Source: Gemmatimonadales bacterium
GTDB lineage: Bacteria; Gemmatimonadota; Gemmatimonadetes; Gemmatimonadales; GWC2-71-9
Reading direction: 5' to 3'
Assembly (NCBI GenBank): GCA_035517615.1
Contig: DATIYM010000020.1
Location: 68,699 to 132,698, forward strand
Length of the DNA stretch: 64,000 nucleotides
Each line of letters opens with the position of its first letter. Position 1 is the first letter of the stretch. A program made the translations under genes and the position numbers. The notes below the pieces were generated by a model. That model was not told the DNA's origin, did no database searches, and worked only from the letters and a program-made list of their open reading frames with translations. Of the stretch, positions 4,618 through 36,694 are shown piece after piece.

Positions 4618-6050
4618 GCGCGGACCGTAGAGGCGAGTAGACCAGTCGCGAGCGTGATCGCGGTGCCAAGCGGCACGTACCATGGCCAGGCGAGCGATGG
4701 CAGCCAGCGGATCGGAAATCCCGGGATCACGGCGCCAAGGACGATGGGAGTCATGAGCAAGACACTCACCCCGATTGCCATGATCGCGTCGCGCTGCCGC
4801 GCGCGTGACGAGATCCCACCGAGGATATACGTCCCGAGCAATGCGCCATACGTGATTGAGGCAATGCTGAGCGCGAGTTGAACCACGGGCGTGTTCTGCT
4901 GCCGCAGCGCGAGCGCGCCCGAGACCAGCACGGCAGTCCAGAGGACCGTCAGCCAACGCCCGACGCCGAGCAGGTGCGCGGGATCGGTCCGGCCGGTGAG
5001 TGGCGCGTAAAAATCGTGAGTCGAGGCCGAAGCGAGCGAGTTCACCGCCGAAGCGTGGCTGCTCATCGCGGCGGCGAGAATTCCGGCGATCACGAGGCCG
5101 GCAAGACCGGCGGGAAGCTGGGTGATCACGAAGCTCGGATAAATGGCATCGCTCCGCATGTCCGGGTGGTCGGCGCCCGCGAGCCACAGGCTCGTGCCTA
5201 CGAGAAGAAACAGGGCAAACTGCAGAATGATGAACACCCCGGAGCCGATCAATGCCCGCTGCGCATCGCCCAGCCGTCGCGCCGCGAGCAGCCGCTGCAC
5301 GATCAGATGGTCGGTGCCATGCGACGCCGCCGAGAGTAACGCGCCGCCGATCATGCCACCCCAGATCGTGTACACGGCCGTGAACGAAACGCGCGGATCG
5401 ATGGCAACCAGCTTACCGGCGTTCCACGCGCGGCTGAATGCCCCGATGCCTCCCGCGAGGTGCGTCGCCACGATCACCGTGGCGATCCCTCCCAGCACAT
5501 ACACGCACAGCTGAATCACATCGACCCAGACGACTGCCCGCAGGCCTCCCGACCAGGTGTAGATCAACGTCACGAGACCTATGGCGAGAATTCCCAACGA
5601 AAAGTTCCAGCGCGTCACGAGCGCGAGCGGGATCGCGGTGGCGAACACCCGCACACAATCTGCCAGGGCGCGCGTCACGAGAAATACTCCCGACGCCACG
5701 CGCCGGGCGTGCGGGCCGAAGCGCCGCTCGAGCCGCTGGTACGCCGTGTCCTGCGTGCCCTCGAAGTATCCGGGGAGCAAGAGGGCGGCGACCCCGATTC
5801 GGCCCACCAGGTACCCGAAGCCGATCTGGAGAAACGTGAGATTGCCGCGCGCGCCAATCCCCGGAATCGAAATCACCGTGACTGCGGACGTTTCCGTCGC
5901 GACCACCGAGAGCATCAACGCCCACCACGGCAGCCCCCGGTGGCCGAGGAAGTAGTCGGTCGCGTCGCGCTGCTTCCCGGCAAAGAACAGCCCCGCCACG
6001 AGCACGGCGAGGCAGTACGCGACGATGACCGCGATGTCGAGTGGGCGCAG
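4614..6050 (-). CDS. Sodium:solute symporter (SSS) family transporter; start codon unresolved
   Basis: 463-aa listed ORF (GTG 6005) with SSS features (YFLGHRGLPWWALMLSVVATETSAVTVISIPG). The frame stays open upstream to a stop at 6072-6074 and encodes LDIAVIVAYCLAV, the missing half of TM1. That stretch contains no ATG, GTG or TTG. I extended the call to CTG 6050, which follows an AGGAGGAGGGGGGGG run. Confidence 0.75.
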   Translation of the reverse strand: MRPLDIAVIVAYCLAVLVAGLFFAGKQRDATDYFLGHRGLPWWALMLSVVATETSAVTVISIPGIGARGNLTFLQIGFGYLVGRIGVAALLLPGYFEGTQDTAYQRLERRFGPHARRVASGVFLVTRALADCVRVFATAIPLALVTRWNFSLGILAIGLVTLIYTWSGGLRAVVWVDVIQLCVYVLGGIATVIVATHLAGGIGAFSRAWNAGKLVAIDPRVSFTAVYTIWGGMIGGALLSAASHGTDHLIVQRLLAARRLGDAQRALIGSGVFIILQFALFLLVGTSLWLAGADHPDMRSDAIYPSFVITQLPAGLAGLVIAGILAAAMSSHASAVNSLASASTHDFYAPLTGRTDPAHLLGVGRWLTVLWTAVLVSGALALRQQNTPVVQLALSIASITYGALLGTYILGGISSRARQRDAIMAIGVSVLLMTPIVLGAVIPGFPIRWLPSLAWPWYVPLGTAITLATGLLASTVRA

Positions 6051-6073
6051 CGGCGGTTCCCCCCCCTCCTCCT

Positions 6074-6104
6074 AAAGCAAAGGGCCCGCGCCGTACGCGG
6101 GCCC
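6074..6104 (-). terminator. Intrinsic terminator-like hairpin after iscA, immediately upstream of the SSS gene
   Basis: On the minus strand: GGGCCCGCG-UACGG-CGCGGGCCC (9-bp GC stem; plus-strand coordinates 6082-6090 / 6096-6104), followed by UUUGCUUU. Confidence 0.6.
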
Positions 6105-6133
6105 CGCAAGCCAACCGTTACCAGGAGGAACGA

Positions 6134-6493
6134 TCAAACCGTAAACGAGGATCCGCAGCCACAGCCCCCCGTCGCATTCGGATTCTCGAACGCGAACCCG
6201 GACTCCTGGAAGTCGCTCTTGTAGTCGATCGTGACGCCGTTCAGGTATTGCGCGCTGAAGCTGTCCACGAAGCAGCGCACCCCGCCCGTCTCGATCACGA
6301 GATCGTCTTCCATGGGCTTGTCTTCGATGTTGAGGCTGTACTTGAAGCCGGAACAGCCCCCCGGCATGACGCCGACGCGCAGCCCCGCCTGCTCGGGGGC
6401 CACGTTCTCGTCCTTCATGAACTTGAGCACTTCGGCCCCGGCCCGGTCGGTCAGGGTAAGCGTAATTGGGGTGGTCCCCTGCGTAGTCGCCAT
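6134..6493 (-). CDS. erpA: Iron-sulfur cluster insertion protein, IscA/ErpA/HesB family
   Basis: Start moved to ATG 6493 (MATTQGTTPITLT...), which is preceded by AGGAGG. Family motifs GGCSGFKY and the C-terminal CGCGSSF. Confidence 0.85.
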   Translation of the reverse strand: MATTQGTTPITLTLTDRAGAEVLKFMKDENVAPEQAGLRVGVMPGGCSGFKYSLNIEDKPMEDDLVIETGGVRCFVDSFSAQYLNGVTIDYKSDFQESGFAFENPNATGGCGCGSSFTV

Positions 6494-6565
6494 TGCGATC
6501 CTCCTGTCTGACAGCAACTTAGACGCCTCGAATCGGCGTGTCAACTCTCGCCCTCGGAGTGCTTC

Positions 6566-8326
6566 ATGCGGCTCAGTTTAGCCGATTGGTGCGTGGTGAT
6601 CCTGTATTTCCTTTTCAACGTCGCCATCGGCCTCTACTACAAGAGCCGGGCGGGACGCGATACGGGGGAATTCTTCCTCTCGGGTCGCAATGTGCCCTGG
6701 TGGCTCGCGGGCACTTCGATGGTGGCGACCACGTTCGCCGCGGACACACCGCTCGCGGTCACGGGCATGGTGGCGAGGAACGGCATCGCCGGAAACTGGC
6801 TGTGGTGGACGTTCGTGGCGAGCGGCATGCTCACCGTGTTCTTCTATGCGCGGCTGTGGCGGCGCTGCGGCGTGATGACCGACGTGGAGTTCTCGGAAAT
6901 TCGCTATGCCGGTCCACCGGCCGCGTTCCTCCGCGCCTTTCGCGCCCTGTACCTCGGCATACCGATCAACTGCATCATCCTCGGCTGGGTGAATCTCGCC
7001 ATGGTGAAGATCGTCTCGCTCGTGTTCGGGATCGGCAAGACCGAGGCGCTGCTCGTCGTTCTCGGACTGATCGTGCTCACCTCGACGATCTCCACGCTCT
7101 CGGGGTTGTGGGGGGTGCTGGTCACCGACCTGTTCCAGTTCGTGATCAAAATGGGAATGGTGATCGTGCTCGCCGTCGTTGCGGTCGCGGCCGTGGGTGG
7201 CATCGACGCCATGAAGGCGAAGCTCACGACTCTTTCGGGCGCGCACGGCTCGGTACTGAGCTTTGTCCCGGACGTGGGTTCGGCCTGGATGCCGATGATC
7301 ACGTTCCTGGTCTACATCTCGCTCAACTGGTGGGCCACGTGGTACCCGGGAGCGGAGCCTGGCGGCGGCGGGTACGTCGCACAGCGGATGTTCAGCGCGA
7401 AAGACGAAAAGAACTCGCTGCTCGCGACGCTGTGGTTCAACATCGCGCACTATGCCGTCCGGCCCTGGCCCTGGATTCTCGTGGCGCTCGCGTCGCTGAT
7501 TCTGTTCCCGAACCTCGCGGACCCGGAGACCGGGTACGTGCGCGTCATGATCGACTATCTGCCTTCATCGCTCCGTGGTCTGATGGTCGCGGCCTTCGCC
7601 GCGGCGTACATGTCCACCATCGCGACCCAGCTCAACTGGGGCGCGAGCTATCTGGTGAACGATTTCTACCGGCGCTTCGTGCGCCGCGACGCCGCCGAGC
7701 GGCACTACGTGCGCGCCTCCCAGGCCGCCACTGTGTTGCTCACCGTCATTTCGGCCGTTGTCACGCTCTACATGGGGTCGATCGCCGCCGCCTGGAAGCT
7801 GCTCATCGTCACGGGAGCGGGAACGGGTGCGGTACTGCTGTTGCGCTGGTACTGGTGGCGGATCAACGCCTGGAGCGAAGTCGCCGCCATGATCTCGGCG
7901 TTTGTCGTTTCGGTGCTGCTCCAGACCGTGGGCCATCTCGATTCCGACAACCCGGTCGATTTCGCCTGGATGATGATCATCACGGTCGCGATCACGACCG
8001 TGGTGTGGCTCGCCGTCACATTCCTCACGCCTCCCGAGCGGGACGAAACGCTGGTGGCGTTCTACCGGCGCACCCGTCCGTCGCGCGCGGGATGGGGGCC
8101 GATCGCGGCCAAGGCGCCGGATGTCATCGCCTCGGCGGACGGGATCGCCAACCTGATCGATTGGATCGCGGGCTGCGTGCTGATCTACGGCGTGCTCTTC
8201 GGTGTGGGAAAGCTGCTGCTGCACGAATTCGGCGCGGGCGTCGCACTGCTCGCGCTCGGAGTCCTCGCGGGCGGCTACATCTATCGTGATTTGTCCCGAC
8301 GCGGATGGCAAACGGTCGTGGAGTAG
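6566..8326 (+). CDS. Sodium:solute symporter (SSS) family transporter
   Basis: 586-aa polytopic protein. N-terminus DWCVVILYFLFNVAIGLYYKSRAGRDTGEFFLSGRNVPWWLAGTSMVATTFAADTPL is typical of SSS transporters. Confidence 0.85.
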   Translation: MRLSLADWCVVILYFLFNVAIGLYYKSRAGRDTGEFFLSGRNVPWWLAGTSMVATTFAADTPLAVTGMVARNGIAGNWLWWTFVASGMLTVFFYARLWRRCGVMTDVEFSEIRYAGPPAAFLRAFRALYLGIPINCIILGWVNLAMVKIVSLVFGIGKTEALLVVLGLIVLTSTISTLSGLWGVLVTDLFQFVIKMGMVIVLAVVAVAAVGGIDAMKAKLTTLSGAHGSVLSFVPDVGSAWMPMITFLVYISLNWWATWYPGAEPGGGGYVAQRMFSAKDEKNSLLATLWFNIAHYAVRPWPWILVALASLILFPNLADPETGYVRVMIDYLPSSLRGLMVAAFAAAYMSTIATQLNWGASYLVNDFYRRFVRRDAAERHYVRASQAATVLLTVISAVVTLYMGSIAAAWKLLIVTGAGTGAVLLLRWYWWRINAWSEVAAMISAFVVSVLLQTVGHLDSDNPVDFAWMMIITVAITTVVWLAVTFLTPPERDETLVAFYRRTRPSRAGWGPIAAKAPDVIASADGIANLIDWIAGCVLIYGVLFGVGKLLLHEFGAGVALLALGVLAGGYIYRDLSRRGWQTVVE

Positions 8327-28369: not shown

Positions 28370-28457
28370 CTCCGTCCAGGGCAAACCACGGGTGACCGTG
28401 GGACGCAAAGCCACAGGGTCTCGACGCAATCCGTTGAGACAGCCTAGCCGCCGGGAG
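28370..28457 (+). promoter_or_regulatory. c-di-GMP-I (GEMM-I) riboswitch aptamer candidate in the pilin leader
   Basis: CAGGGCAAACC (28377-87). A perfect 6-bp hairpin CCACGG-GUGA-CCGUGG with a GNRA tetraloop (28386-28401). GGGACGCAAAGCC (28400-12). A 9-bp P3-like hairpin GUCUCGACG-CAAUC-CGUUGAGAC (28418-40). A closing CUCCG / CGG(G)AG P1. This closely parallels my recollection of the V. cholerae Vc2 aptamer: CAGGGCAAACC..GAAA..GGGACGCAAAGCC. Confidence 0.6.
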
Positions 28458-28561: not shown

Positions 28562-28981
28562 ATGTTGGGTCGTCGCGGCTTCACACTCATCGAGCTGCTC
28601 ATCGTGGTGGTCATCATCGGCATTCTCGCCGCCATCGCGATCCCGAAATTCGCCAACACGAAGGAAAAGGCGTACATCGCCTCGATGAAGTCCGACCTTC
28701 GGAACCTGGTTACCGCCGAAGAGGCCTATTTCGCCGACTCAGTGAAGTACTCGACCCAGGTGTCCTGCGCCAATCCGCCCGCCGCGGGTAAGGTGGCGTT
28801 CTGCACGACGACCGGAAACACGCTGGGCACGCCGACGGTGGGCACGGGCACGCAGGCGGGGTGGACGGCGAGCATCACGAACCTCAACACCACGAAGAGC
28901 TGCGCGATCTACGTGGGGGCAGTGACCCCCGCGGCCCCGGGGCAAACTACCGATCCGGAGGGCGCGCCGGTCTGCCGATAA
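28562..28981 (+). CDS. pilA: Type IV pilin (prepilin-type N-terminal cleavage/methylation domain)
   Basis: MLGRRG|FTLIELLIVVVIIGILAAIAIPKF is the class III signal, followed by a hydrophobic alpha-1 helix. 139 aa. Confidence 0.9.
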   Translation: MLGRRGFTLIELLIVVVIIGILAAIAIPKFANTKEKAYIASMKSDLRNLVTAEEAYFADSVKYSTQVSCANPPAAGKVAFCTTTGNTLGTPTVGTGTQAGWTASITNLNTTKSCAIYVGAVTPAAPGQTTDPEGAPVCR

Positions 28982-29062: not shown

Positions 29063-30553
29063 ATGCCCGACTCGTGGCTCGATACGGACGGCCCCCGTGC
29101 GGAGCGCACCAGCGCTCCCGCGCGGGCATTTCGCATCGAACGCGATCCGCTGGGCGAGCTCGCGGTCCCCGTGGACGCGCTGTATGGCATTCAGACCGAG
29201 CGCGCGCGGCAGAATTTCCCGATCTCCGGGCTGCTCCCGCTGGCGCGGTTCGTCACCGCCGTCGTCGCGATCAAGAAAGCCGCGGCACTCACCCATCGGG
29301 AAACGGGCCGCCTCGAGCGCCGGCTCGCCGACGCGATCGTGCAGGCGGCGGACGAGGTGCTCGGGGGGGAACACCGTGATCAGTTCGTGGTCGATCCCTA
29401 TCAGGCCGGGGCGGGCACCTCGCACAACATGAACTGCAACGAGGTGCTCGCCAATCGCGCCAACGAGCTGCTCGGCGGCCGCCGTGGCGAATACATGCCG
29501 GTTCATCCGAACGATCACGTCAACATGGCGCAGTCCACGAACGACGTGATCCCCACGGCGATTCGCCTCGCCGCCCTGCTCGAAATGGCGGCCTTGCTGG
29601 AAGCGCAGGAACAGCTCGCCAGGGCGTTCCTCGCCCGGGGCCAGGCATTCGATTCGATCCTCAAATCCGCTCGCACCCATTTGCAGGACGCCACTCCGAT
29701 TCGGCTCGGCCAGGAATTCACGGCGTACGGACGCATCTGCGAGCGCAGTCGCGAGCGAGTGGCCCGTGCCGCCGATCCGCTGCGCGAGCTGGGCATTGGC
29801 GGCAGCGCGGTCGGCACCGGGCTCAATGTCGAGCCAGCGTACCCGAAGCTCGTGGTGCGGCATCTCCAGGAAATCACCGGGCTCACGCTCCGCGAGGGAT
29901 CCGACCGAGTCCAGCTGATGCAGTCTCTGGGAGATGTGACGGGGTTCTCGGGTGCGCTTCGCGCCTACGCCGCGGACTTGGGCAAAATCGCAAGCGATAT
30001 CCGGCTGCTCGCGTCGGGTCCCCGCACCGGGTTCGCCGAAATCAATCTGCCTCCCGTGCAACCGGGATCGAGCATCATGCCGGGAAAAGTGAACCCTTCG
30101 ATCGCCGAGATGGTGAACATGGTGTGCTATCAGGTGATCGGAAATGACGTGTGCGTAGGCGTGGCGGCTGAAGCGGGACAGCTCGAGCTCAACGTGATGA
30201 TGCCGGTGATCGCGCACAACCTCCTGTTCACCATGATGATTCTCGCGAACGCGACCCGCGTCTTCGCCGAGCGCTGCGTCTCCGGGATCACGGCCGACGC
30301 GGAGCAGTGCGCCTACTGGCTCGAACGCAGTCCCGCCATCGTAACCGCCCTCGCGCCGCGGATCGGCTACGCCGAAGCGGCGCGGCTCGCCAAGGAAGCG
30401 GTGGCTCAGAACGTCACGGTCCGGGAGCTGGTCAGGCGCAAGGGCTTGCTCAGTGATGCCGAACTCGACCAGGTGCTCGACCTCCGTGCTATGACTGAAC
30501 TTGGGGTACCTGGAGCCCGGCCCCCAAAGCCTGCGGGCGACGCCGGGCATTGA
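29063..30553 (+). CDS. aspA: Aspartate ammonia-lyase (class II fumarase/aspartase family)
   Basis: Signature GSSIMPGKVNPSIAEMVNMVCYQVIGND is closer to aspartase than to FumC. TGxNxN and SxNDVxPT motifs are present. Confidence 0.8.
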   Translation: MPDSWLDTDGPRAERTSAPARAFRIERDPLGELAVPVDALYGIQTERARQNFPISGLLPLARFVTAVVAIKKAAALTHRETGRLERRLADAIVQAADEVLGGEHRDQFVVDPYQAGAGTSHNMNCNEVLANRANELLGGRRGEYMPVHPNDHVNMAQSTNDVIPTAIRLAALLEMAALLEAQEQLARAFLARGQAFDSILKSARTHLQDATPIRLGQEFTAYGRICERSRERVARAADPLRELGIGGSAVGTGLNVEPAYPKLVVRHLQEITGLTLREGSDRVQLMQSLGDVTGFSGALRAYAADLGKIASDIRLLASGPRTGFAEINLPPVQPGSSIMPGKVNPSIAEMVNMVCYQVIGNDVCVGVAAEAGQLELNVMMPVIAHNLLFTMMILANATRVFAERCVSGITADAEQCAYWLERSPAIVTALAPRIGYAEAARLAKEAVAQNVTVRELVRRKGLLSDAELDQVLDLRAMTELGVPGARPPKPAGDAGH

Positions 30554-30583
30554 AACCCGACTTATCGCATCGCATATTGAGGC

Positions 30584-31039
30584 ATGCGAATCACCACCTG
30601 GGGTGAATACGGCCTGATCGTCTCCGTGAGCCTGGCACGGCGGGCGGGAGAAGGTCCGGTCGCCGCTCGGGAGTTGGCTGAGCAGGAGCGGCTGCCCCAT
30701 GATTACGTCGAACAGATCCTGCTGCGCCTGCGGCGTGCGGGTCTGGTGGAGTCGGTTCGGGGAGCCAAGGGCGGCTACCAGCTCGCCCGCTCGCCCGAGC
30801 ATGTCACCGTCAAAGACGTCATTTCCGCCTCAGAGCACGTCACCTTCGAAGTCAACTGCGACGCCCATCCTGTCGACCCGCACCGATGTAGCCGGGACGC
30901 GTCGTGCAGCATCCGGCCGGTGTGGCGGATGCTCGAACAGCGTGTCAACGAGCTGCTGTCGAGCATTTCGCTCGCCGACCTGACGACGCACGACGAGCCG
31001 ACCGTCTATCAGATTACTGGAGTAATGGTCGGGAACTAG
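30584..31039 (+). CDS. Rrf2-family transcriptional regulator (IscR/CymR-like, three clustered Cys)
   Basis: MRITTWGEYGLIVSVSLA...LVESVRGAKGGYQLAR winged helix-turn-helix. A C-x9-C-x6-C cluster (CDAHPVDPHRCSRDASC). Confidence 0.85.
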   Translation: MRITTWGEYGLIVSVSLARRAGEGPVAARELAEQERLPHDYVEQILLRLRRAGLVESVRGAKGGYQLARSPEHVTVKDVISASEHVTFEVNCDAHPVDPHRCSRDASCSIRPVWRMLEQRVNELLSSISLADLTTHDEPTVYQITGVMVGN

Positions 31040-31071
31040 CCTCACTACAACATCGTTTTTTTTCTGATCCC

Positions 31072-31096
31072 AAACCCGACTGGCGACGTCGGGTTT
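31072..31096 (+). terminator. Hairpin between the Rrf2 gene and the rhodanese gene (terminator or attenuator candidate)
   Basis: aaacccgac (31072-80) pairs with gtcgggttt (31088-96) around a 7-nt loop. A T8 run lies 8 nt upstream (31056-63). Confidence 0.4.
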
Positions 31097-31128
31097 CGAT
31101 CTCGTATTTGGATCACAGGGGAGACACT

Positions 31129-31980
31129 ATGGTGGACTACGCGCATCCGGAGGTGCTGGTCTCGACAGCATGGGTCGGCGAGCATCTCCATGATCCCGAC
31201 ATCCGGCTGATCGAAGTCGATGTCGACACGACGGCATACGATTCGGGCCACATCGAGGGAGCGGTGGGCTGGAACTGGCAGTCACAGCTCAACGACCGGC
31301 TGCGGCGCGACATTCCCGACGCGCGCGCATTTGCGGACCTACTGAGCGCGGCTGGAGTGACGCCGAAGACTGCGGTCGTGCTGTACGGAGACAACAACAA
31401 CTGGTTCGCCGCGTTCGCATTCTGGCTGCTGCAGCTGTACGGCCACAAGCGCGTGCGGCTGATGAACGGTGGACGCGCGAAGTGGGTTGCCGAGCAGCGC
31501 GCGCTCGTCACCGCGCCAGCCAACGTAGCGCGCACGAACTATCCCGCGCCAAAGCGGGCCAACACCGCGCTGCGCGCCAAGCGCCCGGATATCGAGCGGG
31601 CGCTGCGCGGCAAGTCGATCGGTCTCGTGGATGTGCGTTCGCCCGCCGAATTCGTGGGCGATATCGTTGCTCCGCCAGGAATGACCGAAACCGCACAACG
31701 CGCGGGCCACATTCCCGGCGCGCACAACGTGCCCTGGGCTCAGGCGGTGGCTCCCGATGGCACATTCAAACCGCGCGAAGAGTTGGAGCGCTTGTATCGT
31801 CAGGCGGGCGTGCTCGACCGTGACGAGGTCATCGCGTACTGCCGCATCGGCGAACGCTCGAGCCACACGTGGTTCGCGCTCAAATACCTGCTCGGCGTGG
31901 ACAAGGTCCGAAATTATGATGGCTCGTGGACCGAGTGGGGCAATCTGATCGGGGCGCCAATTGTGAAGGGGAGCGAGTGA
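31129..31980 (+). CDS. sseA: Two-domain rhodanese, thiosulfate/3-mercaptopyruvate sulfurtransferase (SseA-like)
   Basis: Start moved to ATG 31129 (GGGGAG upstream). HIEGAVGWNW, HIPGAHNVPW and the active-site loop CRIGERSS. Confidence 0.85.
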   Translation: MVDYAHPEVLVSTAWVGEHLHDPDIRLIEVDVDTTAYDSGHIEGAVGWNWQSQLNDRLRRDIPDARAFADLLSAAGVTPKTAVVLYGDNNNWFAAFAFWLLQLYGHKRVRLMNGGRAKWVAEQRALVTAPANVARTNYPAPKRANTALRAKRPDIERALRGKSIGLVDVRSPAEFVGDIVAPPGMTETAQRAGHIPGAHNVPWAQAVAPDGTFKPREELERLYRQAGVLDRDEVIAYCRIGERSSHTWFALKYLLGVDKVRNYDGSWTEWGNLIGAPIVKGSE

Positions 31981-32930
31981 AAACGGCGGCGGATCGGCGG
32001 ACCGGCGGACCGGCGGTCCGTGGAGACTTCATCGAGCCGATATTGTGGAGTCTTGTTGGGAACACGCCGTTGCTCCCGCTCGATCCGCCGATCCGCCCAT
32101 CCGCCGGTCCGCCCGTCTTTCTCAAGGCCGAGTGGTTCAATCCGGGCGGCAGCGTCAAGGATCGGCCGGCCCTGTTCATTTTGCGTGATGGAGTGGCGCG
32201 ACGCGCGCTGCCGGGAAAGCGCCTGCTCGATGCCACGAGCGGGAATACCGGCATCGCGTACGCGATGCTCGGAGCCGCGGCCGGCATTGGCGTGACGCTG
32301 TGTGTGCCGGCAAACGCCAGCGTTGAGCGCAAGGTGCTGCTCGAGGCCTACGGCGCCGACGTCATCTACACCGATCCACTCGAGGGGACGGATGGCGCGA
32401 TCCGCCGCGCGCAGTCGCTTGCGGCCGCGGAGCCCGACCGCTACTGGTACGCCGACCAGTACAACAATCCCGCGAACCCGGAAGCGCACGCGATCACCAC
32501 CGCTCAGGAGATCTGGCGTCAGACCGAAGGCCGCGTCACGCGGCTCGTCGCCGGACTGGGCACGACCGGAACGCTCATGGGAACGGGTCGGCGGCTGCGC
32601 GAGCTGAGCCCGAACATCGAGTTGGTCGCGGTCCAGCCCGAGGGGCCGTTTCACGGGCTCGAAGGTCTCAAGCATCTGGCTACCGCCATCGTCCCCGGCA
32701 TCTACAATCCCTCGATTCCCGACCGCACGGAGTTCGTCGCCACCGAGGCTGCCGAAGCCATGGTGCGCCGACTGGCGCGTGAGGCCGGGCTATTTGTGGG
32801 CTGGTCAGCCGGTGCCGCCGTGGTCGCGGCCGAGCGGCTTCCGGGCTCCGCGCTGACCGTCGTGATTGCCCCCGATTCGGGCATGCGCTACCTGAGCGAG
32901 CGCGAGCGGGTCGAGGGCACCGCGCTATGA
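31977..32930 (+). CDS. cysM: PLP-dependent cysteine synthase, CysM-like (thiocarboxylate-dependent candidate)
   Basis: The GTGA start overlaps the sseA stop. LVGNTPLL, NPGGSVKDRPA (PLP lysine), ATSGNTGIAYA. Confidence 0.85.
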   Translation: MKTAADRRTGGPAVRGDFIEPILWSLVGNTPLLPLDPPIRPSAGPPVFLKAEWFNPGGSVKDRPALFILRDGVARRALPGKRLLDATSGNTGIAYAMLGAAAGIGVTLCVPANASVERKVLLEAYGADVIYTDPLEGTDGAIRRAQSLAAAEPDRYWYADQYNNPANPEAHAITTAQEIWRQTEGRVTRLVAGLGTTGTLMGTGRRLRELSPNIELVAVQPEGPFHGLEGLKHLATAIVPGIYNPSIPDRTEFVATEAAEAMVRRLAREAGLFVGWSAGAAVVAAERLPGSALTVVIAPDSGMRYLSERERVEGTAL

Positions 32931-33379
32931 CGCTGTTCCTGGACGCGAACTTCGTCGCGGCAATTCGCCGCCAGGGCGAAGCGGACTATCCACGAGAGAC
33001 CTGTGGCCTGATGGCGGGATCAAAGCGAGGCGAGAGCACGCGCGTGACGCGTCTCGTTCCCGTGACCAACACCCGGACCGATTCGGCGCACAATCGCTAT
33101 CTTATCGACCCAGAAGAATACCGGCGGGCGCAGATCGAGCTCGACGCCGCGGGTCTCGAGATCGTCGGTATCTATCATTCGCACCCCGACCACCCGGCGC
33201 AGCCATCCGAGTTCGATCGGGAACATGCGCTGCCGTGGTGGAGCTATGTGATTGTGAGAGTCGCGGCGGGACATGCGCAGGAGGTTCGCAGTTGGCGACT
33301 CGTGGACGATCGTTCGATGTTTCAAGAGGAATCCATAACGCAAGACGAACGGAAGGTTGCATGGCAGTCACCGTCCTGA
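32927..33379 (+). CDS. mec: JAMM/MPN+ metallopeptidase (Mec-like)
   Basis: ETCGLMAG plus the HSHPDHPAQPSEFD JAMM motif (E...HxHx7Sx2D). ATGA overlap with cysM. Confidence 0.85.
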   Translation: MTLFLDANFVAAIRRQGEADYPRETCGLMAGSKRGESTRVTRLVPVTNTRTDSAHNRYLIDPEEYRRAQIELDAAGLEIVGIYHSHPDHPAQPSEFDREHALPWWSYVIVRVAAGHAQEVRSWRLVDDRSMFQEESITQDERKVAWQSPS

Positions 33380-34815
33380 TCCCCACTCCACTCCGTCCGT
33401 TTGTAAACGGAAAAGACGCCGTCCAGCTGGAAGGCGGCAGCGTACGCGAGCTGCTCGAGCGGCTCACGCGCGACCATGCCGAGCTCGGCCGCCATCTATT
33501 TGCCGAAGACGGGCGGCTGCGGAGCTTCGTGAACGTGTACGTGAACGATCGGGACATCCGCCATCTGGCGCAGCAGGACACGCGCGTGAGCGCGGGCGAT
33601 ACGGTGTCGATCATCCCCAGCATCGCGGGTGGGGCGGGAACGATCAGCGTCACGCGCAAGCCCGCCGCGGCCCGGTCGCTTCCCAAGCTTTCGCACGAAG
33701 AAATTCTGCGCTATTCGCGCCATCTCATTCTCCCCGACGTGGGACTCGAGGGCCAGCGCAAACTCAAGGCGGCTCGCGTTCTGCTCATCGGCGCCGGTGG
33801 ACTCGGCTCGCCTGCCGCCCTGTATCTGGCCGCGGCGGGCGTCGGCACGATTGGCCTCGTGGACTTTGACGTCGTGGACTCGACCAATCTCCAGCGTCAG
33901 ATCGTGCACGGCACATCGACGGTGGGCGTGTCCAAACTCGAATCGGCGCGGCGCCGCATCAGGGATTTGAATCCGAACGTGCAGGTCGAGGGATTCGAGA
34001 CGCGGCTTACCTCCGAGAACGCGCTCGACATCATCAAGGATTTCGACATCGTCGCCGACGGAACGGACAATTTCGCCACCCGCTATCTCGTGAACGATGC
34101 CTGCGTGCTGCTCGGCAAACCGAACGTGTACGGCTCGATTTTCCGCTTCGAGGGACAGGCGTCGGTGTTCTATGCCAAACAAGGGCCGTGCTATCGCTGC
34201 CTCTATCCCGAGCCGCCGCCTCCGGGACTCGTCCCGTCCTGCGCGGAGGGCGGCGTGCTGGGGGTGCTGCCCGGAATCGTGGGCTCGATTCAGGCGCTCG
34301 AAGCGATCAAACTGGTGATCGGCAACGGCGAGACCCTCATCGGTCGACTGGTGCTGTTCGACGCGCTGCGGCTCAAGTTCCGCGAGCTGAAGCTCGAAAA
34401 GGATCCCAATTGCCCCATCTGCGGCCGGAATCCGACGATCACCTCGCTCATCGACTACGAGGCGTTCTGCGGCGTCACGCCGGAGCCTGGGTATCCCGGC
34501 GCCGAGGTGACCGCGCTCGATCTGAAGGAAGAGATCGACGCCGGCAAGCCGATCGTGGTGCTCGACGTACGCGAGCCGCACGAAGCGGAAATCGCGACCA
34601 TCGAGGGCGCCAAGCTCATTCCGCTTGGTGAGCTCCCCGATCGGTTACGTGAACTCGATGACCACGCCGAGATCGTCACTCATTGTCATCATGGTGCCCG
34701 CGCCGCCAAGGCGCTCGAGATTCTCCGGGCCGCGGGATTCCAGAAGGCCCGAATGCTGGCGGGTGGGATCGACGCGTGGGCGGTAAATGTGGATCCGGAG
34801 ATGCCTAGGTACTAA
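33361..34815 (+). CDS. Fusion protein: CysO/MoaD/ThiS-like beta-grasp sulfur carrier (aa 1-91, ends GG) + MoeB/ThiF E1-like adenylyltransferase + C-terminal rhodanese (MoeZ-like)
   Basis: ATG 33361 (GGAAGG upstream). The N-terminal 91 aa read MAVTVLIPTPLRPF...GDTVSIIPSIAGG (GG codons at 33628-33633). The frame continues without a stop into LSHEEILRYSRHLILPDVGLEGQRKLKAARVLLIGAGGLGSP, CYRC, CAEGGVLG, CPIC and the rhodanese loop CHHGARA. Confidence 0.8.
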   Translation: MAVTVLIPTPLRPFVNGKDAVQLEGGSVRELLERLTRDHAELGRHLFAEDGRLRSFVNVYVNDRDIRHLAQQDTRVSAGDTVSIIPSIAGGAGTISVTRKPAAARSLPKLSHEEILRYSRHLILPDVGLEGQRKLKAARVLLIGAGGLGSPAALYLAAAGVGTIGLVDFDVVDSTNLQRQIVHGTSTVGVSKLESARRRIRDLNPNVQVEGFETRLTSENALDIIKDFDIVADGTDNFATRYLVNDACVLLGKPNVYGSIFRFEGQASVFYAKQGPCYRCLYPEPPPPGLVPSCAEGGVLGVLPGIVGSIQALEAIKLVIGNGETLIGRLVLFDALRLKFRELKLEKDPNCPICGRNPTITSLIDYEAFCGVTPEPGYPGAEVTALDLKEEIDAGKPIVVLDVREPHEAEIATIEGAKLIPLGELPDRLRELDDHAEIVTHCHHGARAAKALEILRAAGFQKARMLAGGIDAWAVNVDPEMPRY

Positions 34816-34877: not shown

Positions 34878-34963
<86 letters not shown>

Positions 34964-35057: not shown

Positions 35058-35516
35058 GTGGACAAGCTCTCCATAGCCCGGAATCCGCGGGCGCGACACG
35101 ACTATCATCTCCTGGAAACCTGGGAGGCCGGCCTCGTCCTCACGGGCACGGAAGTGAAATCGCTGCGTGATCGGAAGGCGAGTCTGGGCGAGGCGTACGC
35201 GCACGTCCAGAACGGAGAAGTCTGGCTCGAGGGCATGACGATCTCCCCGTACGGACCGGGTAGCTATAACAACCCTCCCCCGGCACGCTCGCGCAAGTTG
35301 TTGCTGCACAAACGCGAGATCCGCAAACTGATCGGGGGAACGACGCAACGGGGTCTGACACTGGTCCCGCTCGAGCTGTACTTCAAGGATGGAGTAGCGA
35401 AAGTGGCCATCGCGCTCGCCCGCGCCAAGAAGGTTCACGATAAGCGCGACGAGTTGAAGCGTCGCGCGATCGATCGCGAGCTGGCGCGCGCGTTTCGCAA
35501 CCGGGGCAAATCGTGA
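35058..35516 (+). CDS. smpB: SsrA-binding protein
   Basis: IARNPRARHDYHLLETWEAGLVLTGTEVKSLR...LLLHKREIRKL are typical SmpB motifs. Confidence 0.9.
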   Translation: MDKLSIARNPRARHDYHLLETWEAGLVLTGTEVKSLRDRKASLGEAYAHVQNGEVWLEGMTISPYGPGSYNNPPPARSRKLLLHKREIRKLIGGTTQRGLTLVPLELYFKDGVAKVAIALARAKKVHDKRDELKRRAIDRELARAFRNRGKS

Positions 35517-36694
35517 TGCTGGTCCTGCTCGCGGCGCTTCTCGCCCCCGCGCAGATCGCGATTGCCACGCCGCGGGGCCAAACGCTCGTTCCGGTAACCA
35601 CGGAGCGGGGCGGGGCCGCGGTGCCGCTGCCTCCACTCATTTCGGCGCTCAATCTCACCACGACGCTCGACGGCTCCGAGGCCACCGTAGGGTTGGACGG
35701 TGCGATTTTCATCTTCCAGCTGGGCATGCCGTTCGTGCGCGCGCGCGGGGCCATCTATTCCATGTCGATCGGTCCCTATCTCGCGCGCGACACGCTGTTC
35801 CTCCCGCTCGACTGGGTGGCGGTAACGATTCCTCAGGTGCTTAAGGGCCGCTACCGCTGGGACGATGCCACGGCACGGCTCGAGGAGCTGCCCCAGCCGG
35901 CCGCGAGCGCGGTGTCGGCCGTGCTGTCGAACGCGCCCAACCCGCTCACCGGACTCAGGCTCAGACACATCATTCTCGTCGACCCCGGCCATGGCGGCGC
36001 GGACCCCGGCAACCCGGGGCTCTATTTCCCTGGTGGACTGGTCGAGAAAGACATCACGCTGAACGTCGCCAAGCTGCTGCGGGCCGAACTGCTGCGTCGC
36101 GGGCTCGAAGCGCGCCTGACGCGGACGCGCGACACGTTGATCGATCTGGCCGATCGCGGCGCGTTGTGCAGCGGCGACTGCGACTTGTTCGTCAGCATCC
36201 ACGTGAATTCAATGCCGCGGGGTCAGCACCAGTCGGCGGCGAGCGGCGTCGAGACCTACTTTCTGTCCGATGCGAAAACCGAAGATCAGCGCCGCGTGGC
36301 GCAGATGGAAAACGACGCCATCCGTTTCGAGACCGATGGGTCGAATGCGTCCACGGGTGACCTGGGGTTCATCCTCCGCGATTTGCAGGCCAACGAATAC
36401 CTCCGCGAATCGGCCCGGCTCGCGCAGCTCGTGCAACAGCGCGTGAGTCTCGTGCACCCGGGCGGGGATCGCGGCGTGCAGCAGGCGGGATTCATGGTGC
36501 TCACCACGGCGCGGCGCCCGGCGATCCTGGTCGAGACCGGCTTCGCCACCAACCGGACCGATGCCGCGTTCCTCGCGTCGAGCCTCGGGCAGCACAAGGT
36601 GGCCAGCGCGGTGGCCGACGGGATCGTCGCGTATCTCCTCGAGTTCGAGCGTAAACTCTCCGGAATGACCGCCGCGGGCCGGGCGCCGCAGTGA
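35513..36694 (+). CDS. N-acetylmuramoyl-L-alanine amidase (Amidase_3, AmiC-like) with an N-terminal AMIN-like domain
   Basis: ILVDPGHGGADPG, DLFVSIHVNS, GVETYFLS and PAILVETGFATN. Signal peptide MMLVLLAALLAPAQIA. Confidence 0.85.
   Translation: MMLVLLAALLAPAQIAIATPRGQTLVPVTTERGGAAVPLPPLISALNLTTTLDGSEATVGLDGAIFIFQLGMPFVRARGAIYSMSIGPYLARDTLFLPLDWVAVTIPQVLKGRYRWDDATARLEELPQPAASAVSAVLSNAPNPLTGLRLRHIILVDPGHGGADPGNPGLYFPGGLVEKDITLNVAKLLRAELLRRGLEARLTRTRDTLIDLADRGALCSGDCDLFVSIHVNSMPRGQHQSAASGVETYFLSDAKTEDQRRVAQMENDAIRFETDGSNASTGDLGFILRDLQANEYLRESARLAQLVQQRVSLVHPGGDRGVQQAGFMVLTTARRPAILVETGFATNRTDAAFLASSLGQHKVASAVADGIVAYLLEFERKLSGMTAAGRAPQ

Follow-up and report, generated by a model that had tools for sequence, protein, structure and literature searches.

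Sulfur carriers such as ThiS, MoaD and CysO require a free C-terminal carboxylate for adenylation and thiocarboxylation (PMC3227635), and the question raised here is how such a carrier could work when it is translated as the N-terminal part of its own activating enzyme (E1). The locus that raises it lies in a 64,000-nucleotide (nt) stretch of DNA from a soil bacterium of the Gemmatimonadales (GCA_035517615.1, contig DATIYM010000020.1, positions 68,699-132,698 of the forward strand), the whole of which is called the window below. At 30584-34815 on the + strand of the window there are five genes whose ends overlap or come close to abutting, and the last of them carries a CysO-type carrier, an E1 domain and a rhodanese domain in a single frame. 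Every enzyme has its catalytic motifs intact, and the cassette of CysM-type cysteine synthase, JAMM peptidase and fusion gene is conserved across phyla. The answer proposed is that this is probably a protein-thiocarboxylate cysteine operon of the CysO/CysM/Mec+/MoeZ kind, in which the carrier would be made on its own E1 and then released by the JAMM peptidase. The features of the operon are as follows (aa, amino acids; PLP, pyridoxal phosphate).

30550..30578, + strand: sigma-70-like promoter match directly 5' of the Rrf2 gene (9/12 in a consensus scan; a weak pattern match only)
30584..31039, + strand: Rrf2-family regulator, 151 aa (Pfam Rrf2, 2.3e-34)
31129..31980, + strand: tandem rhodanese of the thiosulfate sulfurtransferase (CysA2/SseA) type, 283 aa, loop CRIGERS (Pfam Rhodanese, two stretches)
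31977..32930, + strand: CysM-type PLP-dependent cysteine synthase, 317 aa (Pfam PALP, 7.3e-63)
32927..33379, + strand: JAMM/MPN+ metallopeptidase, 150 aa (Pfam Prok-JAB, 6e-31)
33361..34815, + strand: fused gene for carrier, linker, E1 and rhodanese, 484 aa (Pfam ThiS, ThiF and Rhodanese)
33361..33633, + strand: CysO-type beta-grasp carrier domain, residues 1-91, with the end IIPSIAGG (Pfam ThiS, 5.1e-13)
33628..33636, + strand: predicted scissile site, Gly90-Gly91 and then Ala92 (from AGG conservation and residue bias in relatives)
33634..33684, + strand: linker, residues 92-108 (AGTISVTRKPAAARSLP), not conserved; MoeB homology begins at residue 109
33685..34428, + strand: MoeB/ThiF-type adenylation (E1) domain with GAGGLGSP, two CxxC pairs and CAEGG (Pfam ThiF, 1.9e-85)
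34513..34782, + strand: C-terminal rhodanese domain, loop CHHGAR (Pfam Rhodanese, 2.8e-17)

The order of Rrf2 regulator, two-domain rhodanese, CysM, JAMM and 484-aa open reading frame (ORF) had been read from the letters in an initial annotation of this DNA, and it was confirmed at these coordinates; the start of the rhodanese gene, which was missing there, is the ATG at 31129 according to the gene calls. The three overlaps on which that annotation relied are also found in the sequence: GTGA at 31977-31980 between the rhodanese gene and cysM, ATGA at 32927-32930 between cysM and the JAMM gene, and 19 nt at 33361-33379 between the JAMM gene and the fusion gene.

First of all, the nature of the N-terminal domain has to be settled. 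Pfam places ThiS at residues 5-91 of the 484-aa protein, ThiF at 118-352 and Rhodanese at 385-474, and since the ThiS profile is matched from position 1 to 76 of 76, the domain ends exactly at G91. Alignment with known structures runs from the first to the last residue, both with CysO of Mycobacterium tuberculosis (3dwg_C, E 7.7e-15) and with the carrier of A. orientalis (4n6e_B, E 4e-17), and the AGG falls on the true C-termini of the two. Its nearest relatives are carriers of the CysO type, not MoaD or ThiS; judged by homology, it is a true CysO-family carrier. The codons of Gly90-Gly91 (GGT GGG) occupy 33628-33633, beyond which the frame stays open without a stop, and 393 residues follow G91 in the same frame. 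That is to say, the Gly-Gly is internal to the polypeptide and not a free end. The motifs GAGGLGSP, CYRC/CPIC, CAEGG and CHHGAR are all present in the protein, and the E1 half matches MoeB (1jw9, 1.5e-61) and Uba4 (6yub, 2.3e-65), which gives it the MoeZ/Uba4 architecture. Residue 109 of the fused protein corresponds to residue 3 of E. coli MoeB, where the homology begins, so that the linker proper comprises residues 92-108. The proposal that the first 91 residues form a beta-grasp carrier ending in IIPSIAGG, followed in frame by an adenylation domain and a rhodanese, is thus borne out by profile, structure matches, motifs and frame.

Relatives were collected in two ways. A scan of one genome per species gave 591 relatives, of which the best 80 were examined (loci designated Lnnn); in a second sample, residues 1-140 were compared with 1.84 billion cluster representatives and the best 150 were inspected. 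The best 80 loci come from Gemmatimonadota, many lineages of Acidobacteriota, Eisenbacteria, Dormibacterota, Armatimonadota, Bacteroidota, KSB1, Chloroflexota and one bin labelled as archaeal. The survey of fused against split orthologues that the initial annotation had suggested shows carrier and E1 in one uninterrupted frame in 64 of 79 loci and split in 15, and 70 of the best 150 cluster representatives are fused. The arrangement is far less unusual than it was made to seem at first: within a large family most members are fused, and the literature already contains the architecture as well as the idea of cleavage (PMC1779556, PMC2948915, PMC11237513). The E1 motifs are invariant in 79-80 of the 80 loci, and the Cys and Arg of the rhodanese loop are conserved in 79. 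Where upstream sequence is available, a JAMM gene stands upstream of the carrier, usually adjacent to it, in 78/78 loci, and CysM lies beside the JAMM gene in 73 of these 78. The Rrf2 and tandem rhodanese genes occupy their operon position only in Gemmatimonadales loci (Rrf2 in L001-L006).

The junction between carrier and E1 is where cleavage should leave its mark. AGG is present in all 78 loci with a complete junction. The linker that follows it is rich in Ala, Pro and Glu and is about 4 to 36 residues long, so variable that 13 to 45 residues separate Gly-Gly from the E1 motif RYSR. Directly behind Gly-Gly, 56 of 63 fused loci and 56 of 70 fused cluster representatives have Ser, Ala or Thr, whereas at the other linker positions these three make up 34%; the counts are not phylogenetically independent and are therefore supportive rather than proof. 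Pro is never found directly after Gly-Gly, yet it is the commonest residue one position further on. Such a bias is the pattern expected of a scissile bond that is read by a peptidase, and the preferred residues are near in size to cysteine, the leaving group of Mec+.

The split relatives lead in the same direction. In these 15 loci the stop lies 0-24 codons after Gly-Gly, and 14 of them keep a tail of 1-24 residues (for example K, TA, MY, ARK or NAKD), with exactly one carrier ending at Gly-Gly itself; a tail would therefore have to be removed in the fused and split states alike. A neighbour-joining tree built from the E1 domains has split forms sitting among fused ones in at least six places, which means that fusion and fission have occurred repeatedly. 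The need for proteolytic release, which had been claimed from the requirement for a free Gly-Gly end, is thus backed by the invariant AGG, the hypervariable linker, the small non-Pro residue that follows and the tailed split relatives.

Several individual relatives deserve description in their own right. L067 (Gemmatimonadetes AG14), at 5636-7227, is syntenic with the present locus and has Rrf2, an E1-rhodanese of 380 aa, SmpB and an amidase. Its E1 starts with MTTLSHEE, exactly at the boundary of linker and E1, and overlaps the Rrf2 stop, while the tandem rhodanese, CysM, JAMM and carrier domain have all been lost together. The E1 half is thus shown to be autonomous, and the four lost parts to behave as a single module. 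L062, L059, L050 and L058 are fused, with about 60% identity, and bear the labels Methanomassiliicoccales archaeon, Heliobacteriaceae and Bacteroidetes/Chitinophagaceae. In L062, the archaeal-labelled metagenome-assembled genome (MAG), CysM and JAMM genes lie upstream of the fusion, in agreement with the archaeal MoaD-MoeBR clusters of PMC11237513. The odd labels of these four reflect either horizontal transfer of the cassette or contamination in MAG binning; transfer from Acidobacteria to Archaea has been suggested (PMC11237513). Among the other proteins, P0190 (486 aa) has a rhodanese-like segment straight after Gly-Gly in place of the E1, P0176 (190 aa) has a second beta-grasp-like stretch after Gly-Gly, and P0164 (192 aa) is matched in two stretches; the last two look like tandem carrier domains.

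The mechanism proposed would begin with a cut in the 484-aa precursor at the Gly91-Ala92 bond, for which the JAMM peptidase encoded directly upstream is the most probable enzyme. The products would be a carrier of 91 residues, its Gly-Gly carboxylate now free, and an E1-rhodanese enzyme of 393 residues. The E1 domain would then adenylate the freed carrier, and its rhodanese domain, holding a persulfide, would turn the adenylate into a thiocarboxylate. The co-encoded tandem rhodanese is a plausible loader of this persulfide, possibly from thiosulfate; for the M. tuberculosis pathway the sulfur source is not known (PMC3227635). O-phosphoserine or O-acetylserine would give rise to an aminoacrylate, to which CysM would add the thiocarboxylate, and after an S-to-N acyl shift the same JAMM peptidase would hydrolyse the carrier-Gly-Gly-Cys bond to release cysteine and the free carrier. 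Precursor processing and product release would then be one chemistry, since in each a peptide bond after Gly-Gly would be hydrolysed and the leaving group would start with a small residue.

The accompanying enzymes are what such a mechanism calls for at the level of families. The tandem rhodanese matches 1uar (E 9.7e-97) and the M. tuberculosis thiosulfate sulfurtransferases 3aax and 3hwi (E 3.9e-91). The JAMM protein matches 2kcq (1.2e-26) and also PfJAMM1 (5ld9); its gene adjoins and overlaps the fusion gene, and its motif of E24, H84-S85-H86 and S94 is intact and conserved in 75-78 of the 80 loci, with D97 read from the sequence. CysM matches the Salmonella enzyme (2jc3, 5.7e-59) and M. tuberculosis CysM (3dwg_A, 4e-46). 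Its Lys232 aligns with Arg210 of Salmonella CysM, a position at which 69 of the 72 loci aligned there have Lys and 3 have Arg, and the cosubstrate may be O-phosphoserine or O-acetylserine. The Rrf2 protein has three Cys in its C-terminal half, in the manner of IscR and CymR, and scores above the cut-off of the NCBIfam model rrf2_super and below those of CymR and IscR; it probably ties the expression of the operon to Fe-S, redox or cysteine status.

A number of points weigh against this proposal. We infer both the cleavage and the role of the JAMM protein as its protease, and since a JAMM gene would be expected in the operon for the Mec+ step anyway, finding one there is no mark of the processing enzyme. 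The phylogenetic dependence of the residue counts, mentioned above, is a further point. CysM is nearer to the enterobacterial enzyme than to that of M. tuberculosis, and four fused loci have the JAMM gene with CysM not found within 6 kb. Against their cut-offs, the scores are 522 against 647 bits for the NCBIfam MoeZ equivalog (the architecture agrees, the equivalog status does not), 303 against 394 for TIGR01138 cysM, 85 against 130 for the desampylase model and 53 against 60 for SAMP1 (both NCBIfam). With the equivalog models of MoeZ, CysM, desampylase and SAMP1 all below their cut-offs, the assignments rest on family-level homology and gene context, and membership of the pathway would hold at the level of family and architecture, which is not proven orthology. 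Finally, an AlphaFold2 (AF2) model built on a 30-sequence alignment of fused homologues, all at least 78% identical, reached a mean predicted local distance difference test score (pLDDT) of 56 and a predicted template modelling score of 0.35; with this shallow alignment pLDDT falls to 23-33 in the linker, and the linker and much of the E1 are below 50, a quality too low for any judgement of domain docking.

A bolder extension can be imagined, in which the fusion provides a zymogen-like control. The tethered carrier, which might dock on the other subunit of an E1 dimer, would be inactive until the JAMM cut because its C-terminus is blocked, as might the E1 too because its Ubl (ubiquitin-like protein) site is occupied, and the cut would be the regulated committing step. 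We regard this as unlikely. If it were true, it would mean a cysteine pathway proof against oxidative stress, with carrier and E1 pre-assembled in a strict 1:1 ratio, and a bacterial counterpart of ubiquitin-precursor processing with a "self-loading" E1.

Among the competing explanations, one keeps the cut after Gly-Gly and assigns it to another protease, either a housekeeping peptidase or self-processing, leaving only the Mec+ step to JAMM. M. tuberculosis has Mec+ even though its CysO ends in a free Gly-Gly (PMC3227635), which accounts for a JAMM gene without any processing role, and in D. radiodurans the protease that acts on the MoaD-MoaE fusion is encoded away from its substrate, judging by the locus tags (DR0402 and DR2607; PMC8832034). 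However, trimming of capped or fused sulfur carriers has been demonstrated for no proteases but those of the JAMM family (PMC6006322, PMC8832034, PMC4443979), the scissile bond here is chemically identical to that of the Mec+ substrate, and both the preference for cysteine-sized residues after Gly-Gly and the unbroken linkage of JAMM with the carrier speak for the neighbouring enzyme, which makes a different protease a rather improbable candidate.

A second explanation places the main product elsewhere: in molybdenum cofactor (Moco), in thiolated tRNA or in a thiocarboxylate natural product, or else in a conjugation of the SAMP/TtuB type with JAMM as deconjugase. It draws on the dual-purpose MoeZR of mycobacteria (PMC3227635), on the filing of MoaD-MoeB(R) fusions under Moco synthesis (PMC11237513), on the weak matches to SAMP1, desampylase and UbaA models (the last with 340 bits and a cut-off of 450 in NCBIfam, and all below cut-off), on the four fused loci in which CysM was not found within 6 kb and on L067, which keeps the E1 without CysM, JAMM or carrier. 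On the other side, CysM sits directly beside JAMM and fusion in several phyla, the carrier is of the CysO type, and genes for Moco, thiamine and tRNA thiolation are absent from the operon. The tight linkage with CysM is the reason for taking cysteine as the main role; another main product has little probability, and another product or conjugation is possible as a side function.

Less still can be granted to the view that the beta-grasp domain is never released and serves permanently for regulation or docking, with a separate carrier elsewhere transferring the sulfur, a view we consider very unlikely. Iyer et al. (2006, PMC1779556) argued for a different role of the fused domain where fusions of ubiquitin-like protein (Ubl) and ThiF co-occur with a stand-alone ThiS, and 64 kb of the genome are visible here. 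But the Campylobacter-type Ubl is "distinct from ThiS", whereas the present domain is a full-length CysO homologue; its terminal AGG is invariant beside a hypervariable linker, and repeated fission gives stand-alone carriers at the same position. A second carrier gene was found neither in the 64-kb window nor in the flanks of the 80 loci, apart from one locus.

The weakest alternative, that a sequencing or assembly error removed a stop after Gly-Gly, could appeal to the metagenomic origin of the window and to the NCBI protein HUK21317.1 (390 aa), which leaves out the carrier part, and it is refuted by the identical 484-aa protein in the same gene order in independently assembled contigs from four separate samples (ENA ERZ27256511 and ERZ27256612, JGI 3300032892 and 3300032783), by the in-frame fusion in most species-level relatives and by the 120 listed homologues (78-100% identity), of which the 119 with full-length calls all carry ThiS, ThiF and Rhodanese. 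The absence of a stop or frameshift after Gly-Gly, for which the initial annotation asked confirmation from reads, is thereby supported by independent assemblies. Two related candidates were also rejected: a programmed frameshift or hidden stop, as neither alternative frame has a nearby stop and the fusion is in frame in 64 loci, and an internal start for a separate E1, as the linker is without an ATG, GTG or TTG codon.

The lone exception among the 120 is P0043, which is HUK21317.1 itself, the shortened NCBI call of the window's own fusion gene. This 390-aa "MoeB" spans 33643-34815 of the window and begins at an ATC codon within the linker, which looks like an annotation artefact. Because the start lies inside the linker, the carrier domain goes unannotated and the genome appears to be without a carrier; other records of the fusion family may have lost it likewise. 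Hundreds of genomes of Gemmatimonadota and Acidobacteriota may thus be scored as lacking the CysO carrier or even the cysteine route, because the gene that hides the carrier goes by the name MoeB and because the choice of start codon cut the carrier off in one NCBI record at least (HUK21317.1). Since these phyla are dominant in soil, reconstructions of their metabolism should allow for the fusion. If the cleavage is true, this would be a natural and abundant bacterial case in which a ubiquitin-like protein is synthesised in one linear precursor with its E1 and set free by JAMM, one JAMM enzyme would be both the maturase and the product-releasing hydrolase of a cysteine pathway, and sulfur-carrier chemistry would be linked with the processing of eukaryotic ubiquitin precursors.

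The surroundings of the operon can be described briefly. The 3' boundary of the operon is marked by a tRNA-Leu(CAG) at 34880-34963 on the - strand, within the 242 nt that separate the fusion gene from smpB. Downstream follow smpB (35058-35516, + strand) and a gene for N-acetylmuramoyl-L-alanine amidase (35513-36694, + strand), which keep their position in related Gemmatimonadetes including L067; they are housekeeping neighbours with no sign of a functional link. Further upstream, a c-di-GMP-I riboswitch aptamer (28370-28455, + strand; Rfam RF01051, 52 bits against a gathering score of 35) stands about 100 nt before an ORF (28562-28981, + strand) for a type IV pilin-like protein of 139 aa with the N-terminal methylation motif (Pfam N_methyl), a placement that suggests control of the pilin by c-di-GMP.

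As for earlier descriptions, an operon type 4c of ThiS/MoaD, E1-rhodanese, JAB and cysteine synthase, with the acidobacterium Solibacter usitatus among its members, was defined by Iyer, Burroughs and Aravind (2006, PMC1779556), who also proposed the release of fused ThiS/MoaD by JAB. Makarova and Koonin (2010, PMC2948915) described Ubl-E1 fusions as "shared with bacteria" and reported Ubl-E1-TBP in Thaumarchaeota. A catalogue of 2024 lists MoaD-MoeB and MoaD-MoeBR in clusters 356.1-356.3 under Moco synthesis, the archaeal MoaD-MoeBR fusions being more than 55% identical to acidobacterial proteins (PMC11237513). The present protein shares with these fusions the domain order of carrier, E1 and, with or without it, rhodanese. 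In the three papers the architecture or the operon is recorded and the fusion is taken to belong to Moco synthesis, no link with CysM and JAMM is drawn, and neither the junction nor cleavage is examined. A literature search found catalogues and general hypotheses and no experimental paper on the CysO-MoeZ fusion, nor one in which the fusion is connected with CysM and JAMM, its junction analysed or its cleavage put to the test. The system is a widespread and already catalogued variant of the CysO/CysM/Mec+/MoeZ pathway, experimentally uncharacterised, and the novelty is limited; what is added here is the analysis of the junction, the evidence that fusion and fission recurred while tails behind Gly-Gly were kept, the loss of the module in L067 and the annotation problem that hides the carrier.

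Of the characterised systems, the nearest is the cysteine pathway of M. tuberculosis, in which MoeZR thiocarboxylates CysO and Mec+ hydrolyses CysO-Cys (PMC3227635). The match to its CysO, CysM, Mec and MoeZ claimed in the initial annotation stands in so far as all four protein families are present by Pfam and structure matches: a CysO-type carrier, a PLP-dependent CysM, a JAMM protein and an E1 with a C-terminal rhodanese, encoded by clustered genes, and a thiosulfate sulfurtransferase of the CysA2/SseA type is found in both. In M. tuberculosis moeZ is not known to lie in the cysO operon. There the carrier is free and here it is the N-terminal domain of the E1, which adds one processing step; CysM differs as described above, so that use of O-phosphoserine would be an unproven likeness given the Lys at the Arg210 position; the regulator here is of the Rrf2 family; and ClpS and the actinobacterial helical protein are absent.

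The capped carriers QbsE and PtmS2 require a JAMM protease, QbsD and PtmS1 respectively (PMC6006322). As in these pairs, residues past Gly-Gly would have to be removed before adenylation and the JAMM gene lies in the same cluster, and the split relatives, with their short tails, resemble capped carriers directly. HcyS/HcyD is a further pair of capped carrier and JAMM protease. Unlike QbsE and PtmS2, the "cap" here is the carrier's own E1 of 393 residues instead of one or two residues, and the product appears to be cysteine of primary metabolism rather than a siderophore or an antibiotic. Closer in form are the fusions in which a beta-grasp carrier stands head-to-tail with a partner of its pathway: DRJAMM cleaves the MoaD-MoaE fusion DR2607 of D. 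radiodurans (PMC8832034), cleavage of MoaX of M. tuberculosis is needed for its activity (PMC4326299), and HvJAMM1 cleaves linear SAMP1 fusions such as SAMP1-MoaE of H. volcanii (PMC4443979). They differ in that the partner here is the activating E1 and not a sulfur-accepting synthase subunit, the proposed product is cysteine and not molybdopterin, and the protease gene is adjacent. From the Campylobacter-type Ubl-ThiF (PMC1779556) the present fusion is set apart by a genuine ThiS/CysO homologue with Gly-Gly and by a context of CysM and JAMM rather than thiG/thiC.

The last comparison is with the ubiquitin precursors, namely polyubiquitin and the fusions of ubiquitin with ribosomal proteins. 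The JAMM proteins are a family of deubiquitinases. No conjugation cascade is present here and the partner is the E1 itself, so the analogy is one of function and not of membership. Within that analogy, both are beta-grasp modifiers in a linear fusion ending in Gly-Gly-X, and the release by a peptidase that is known for ubiquitin is what we infer for the carrier.

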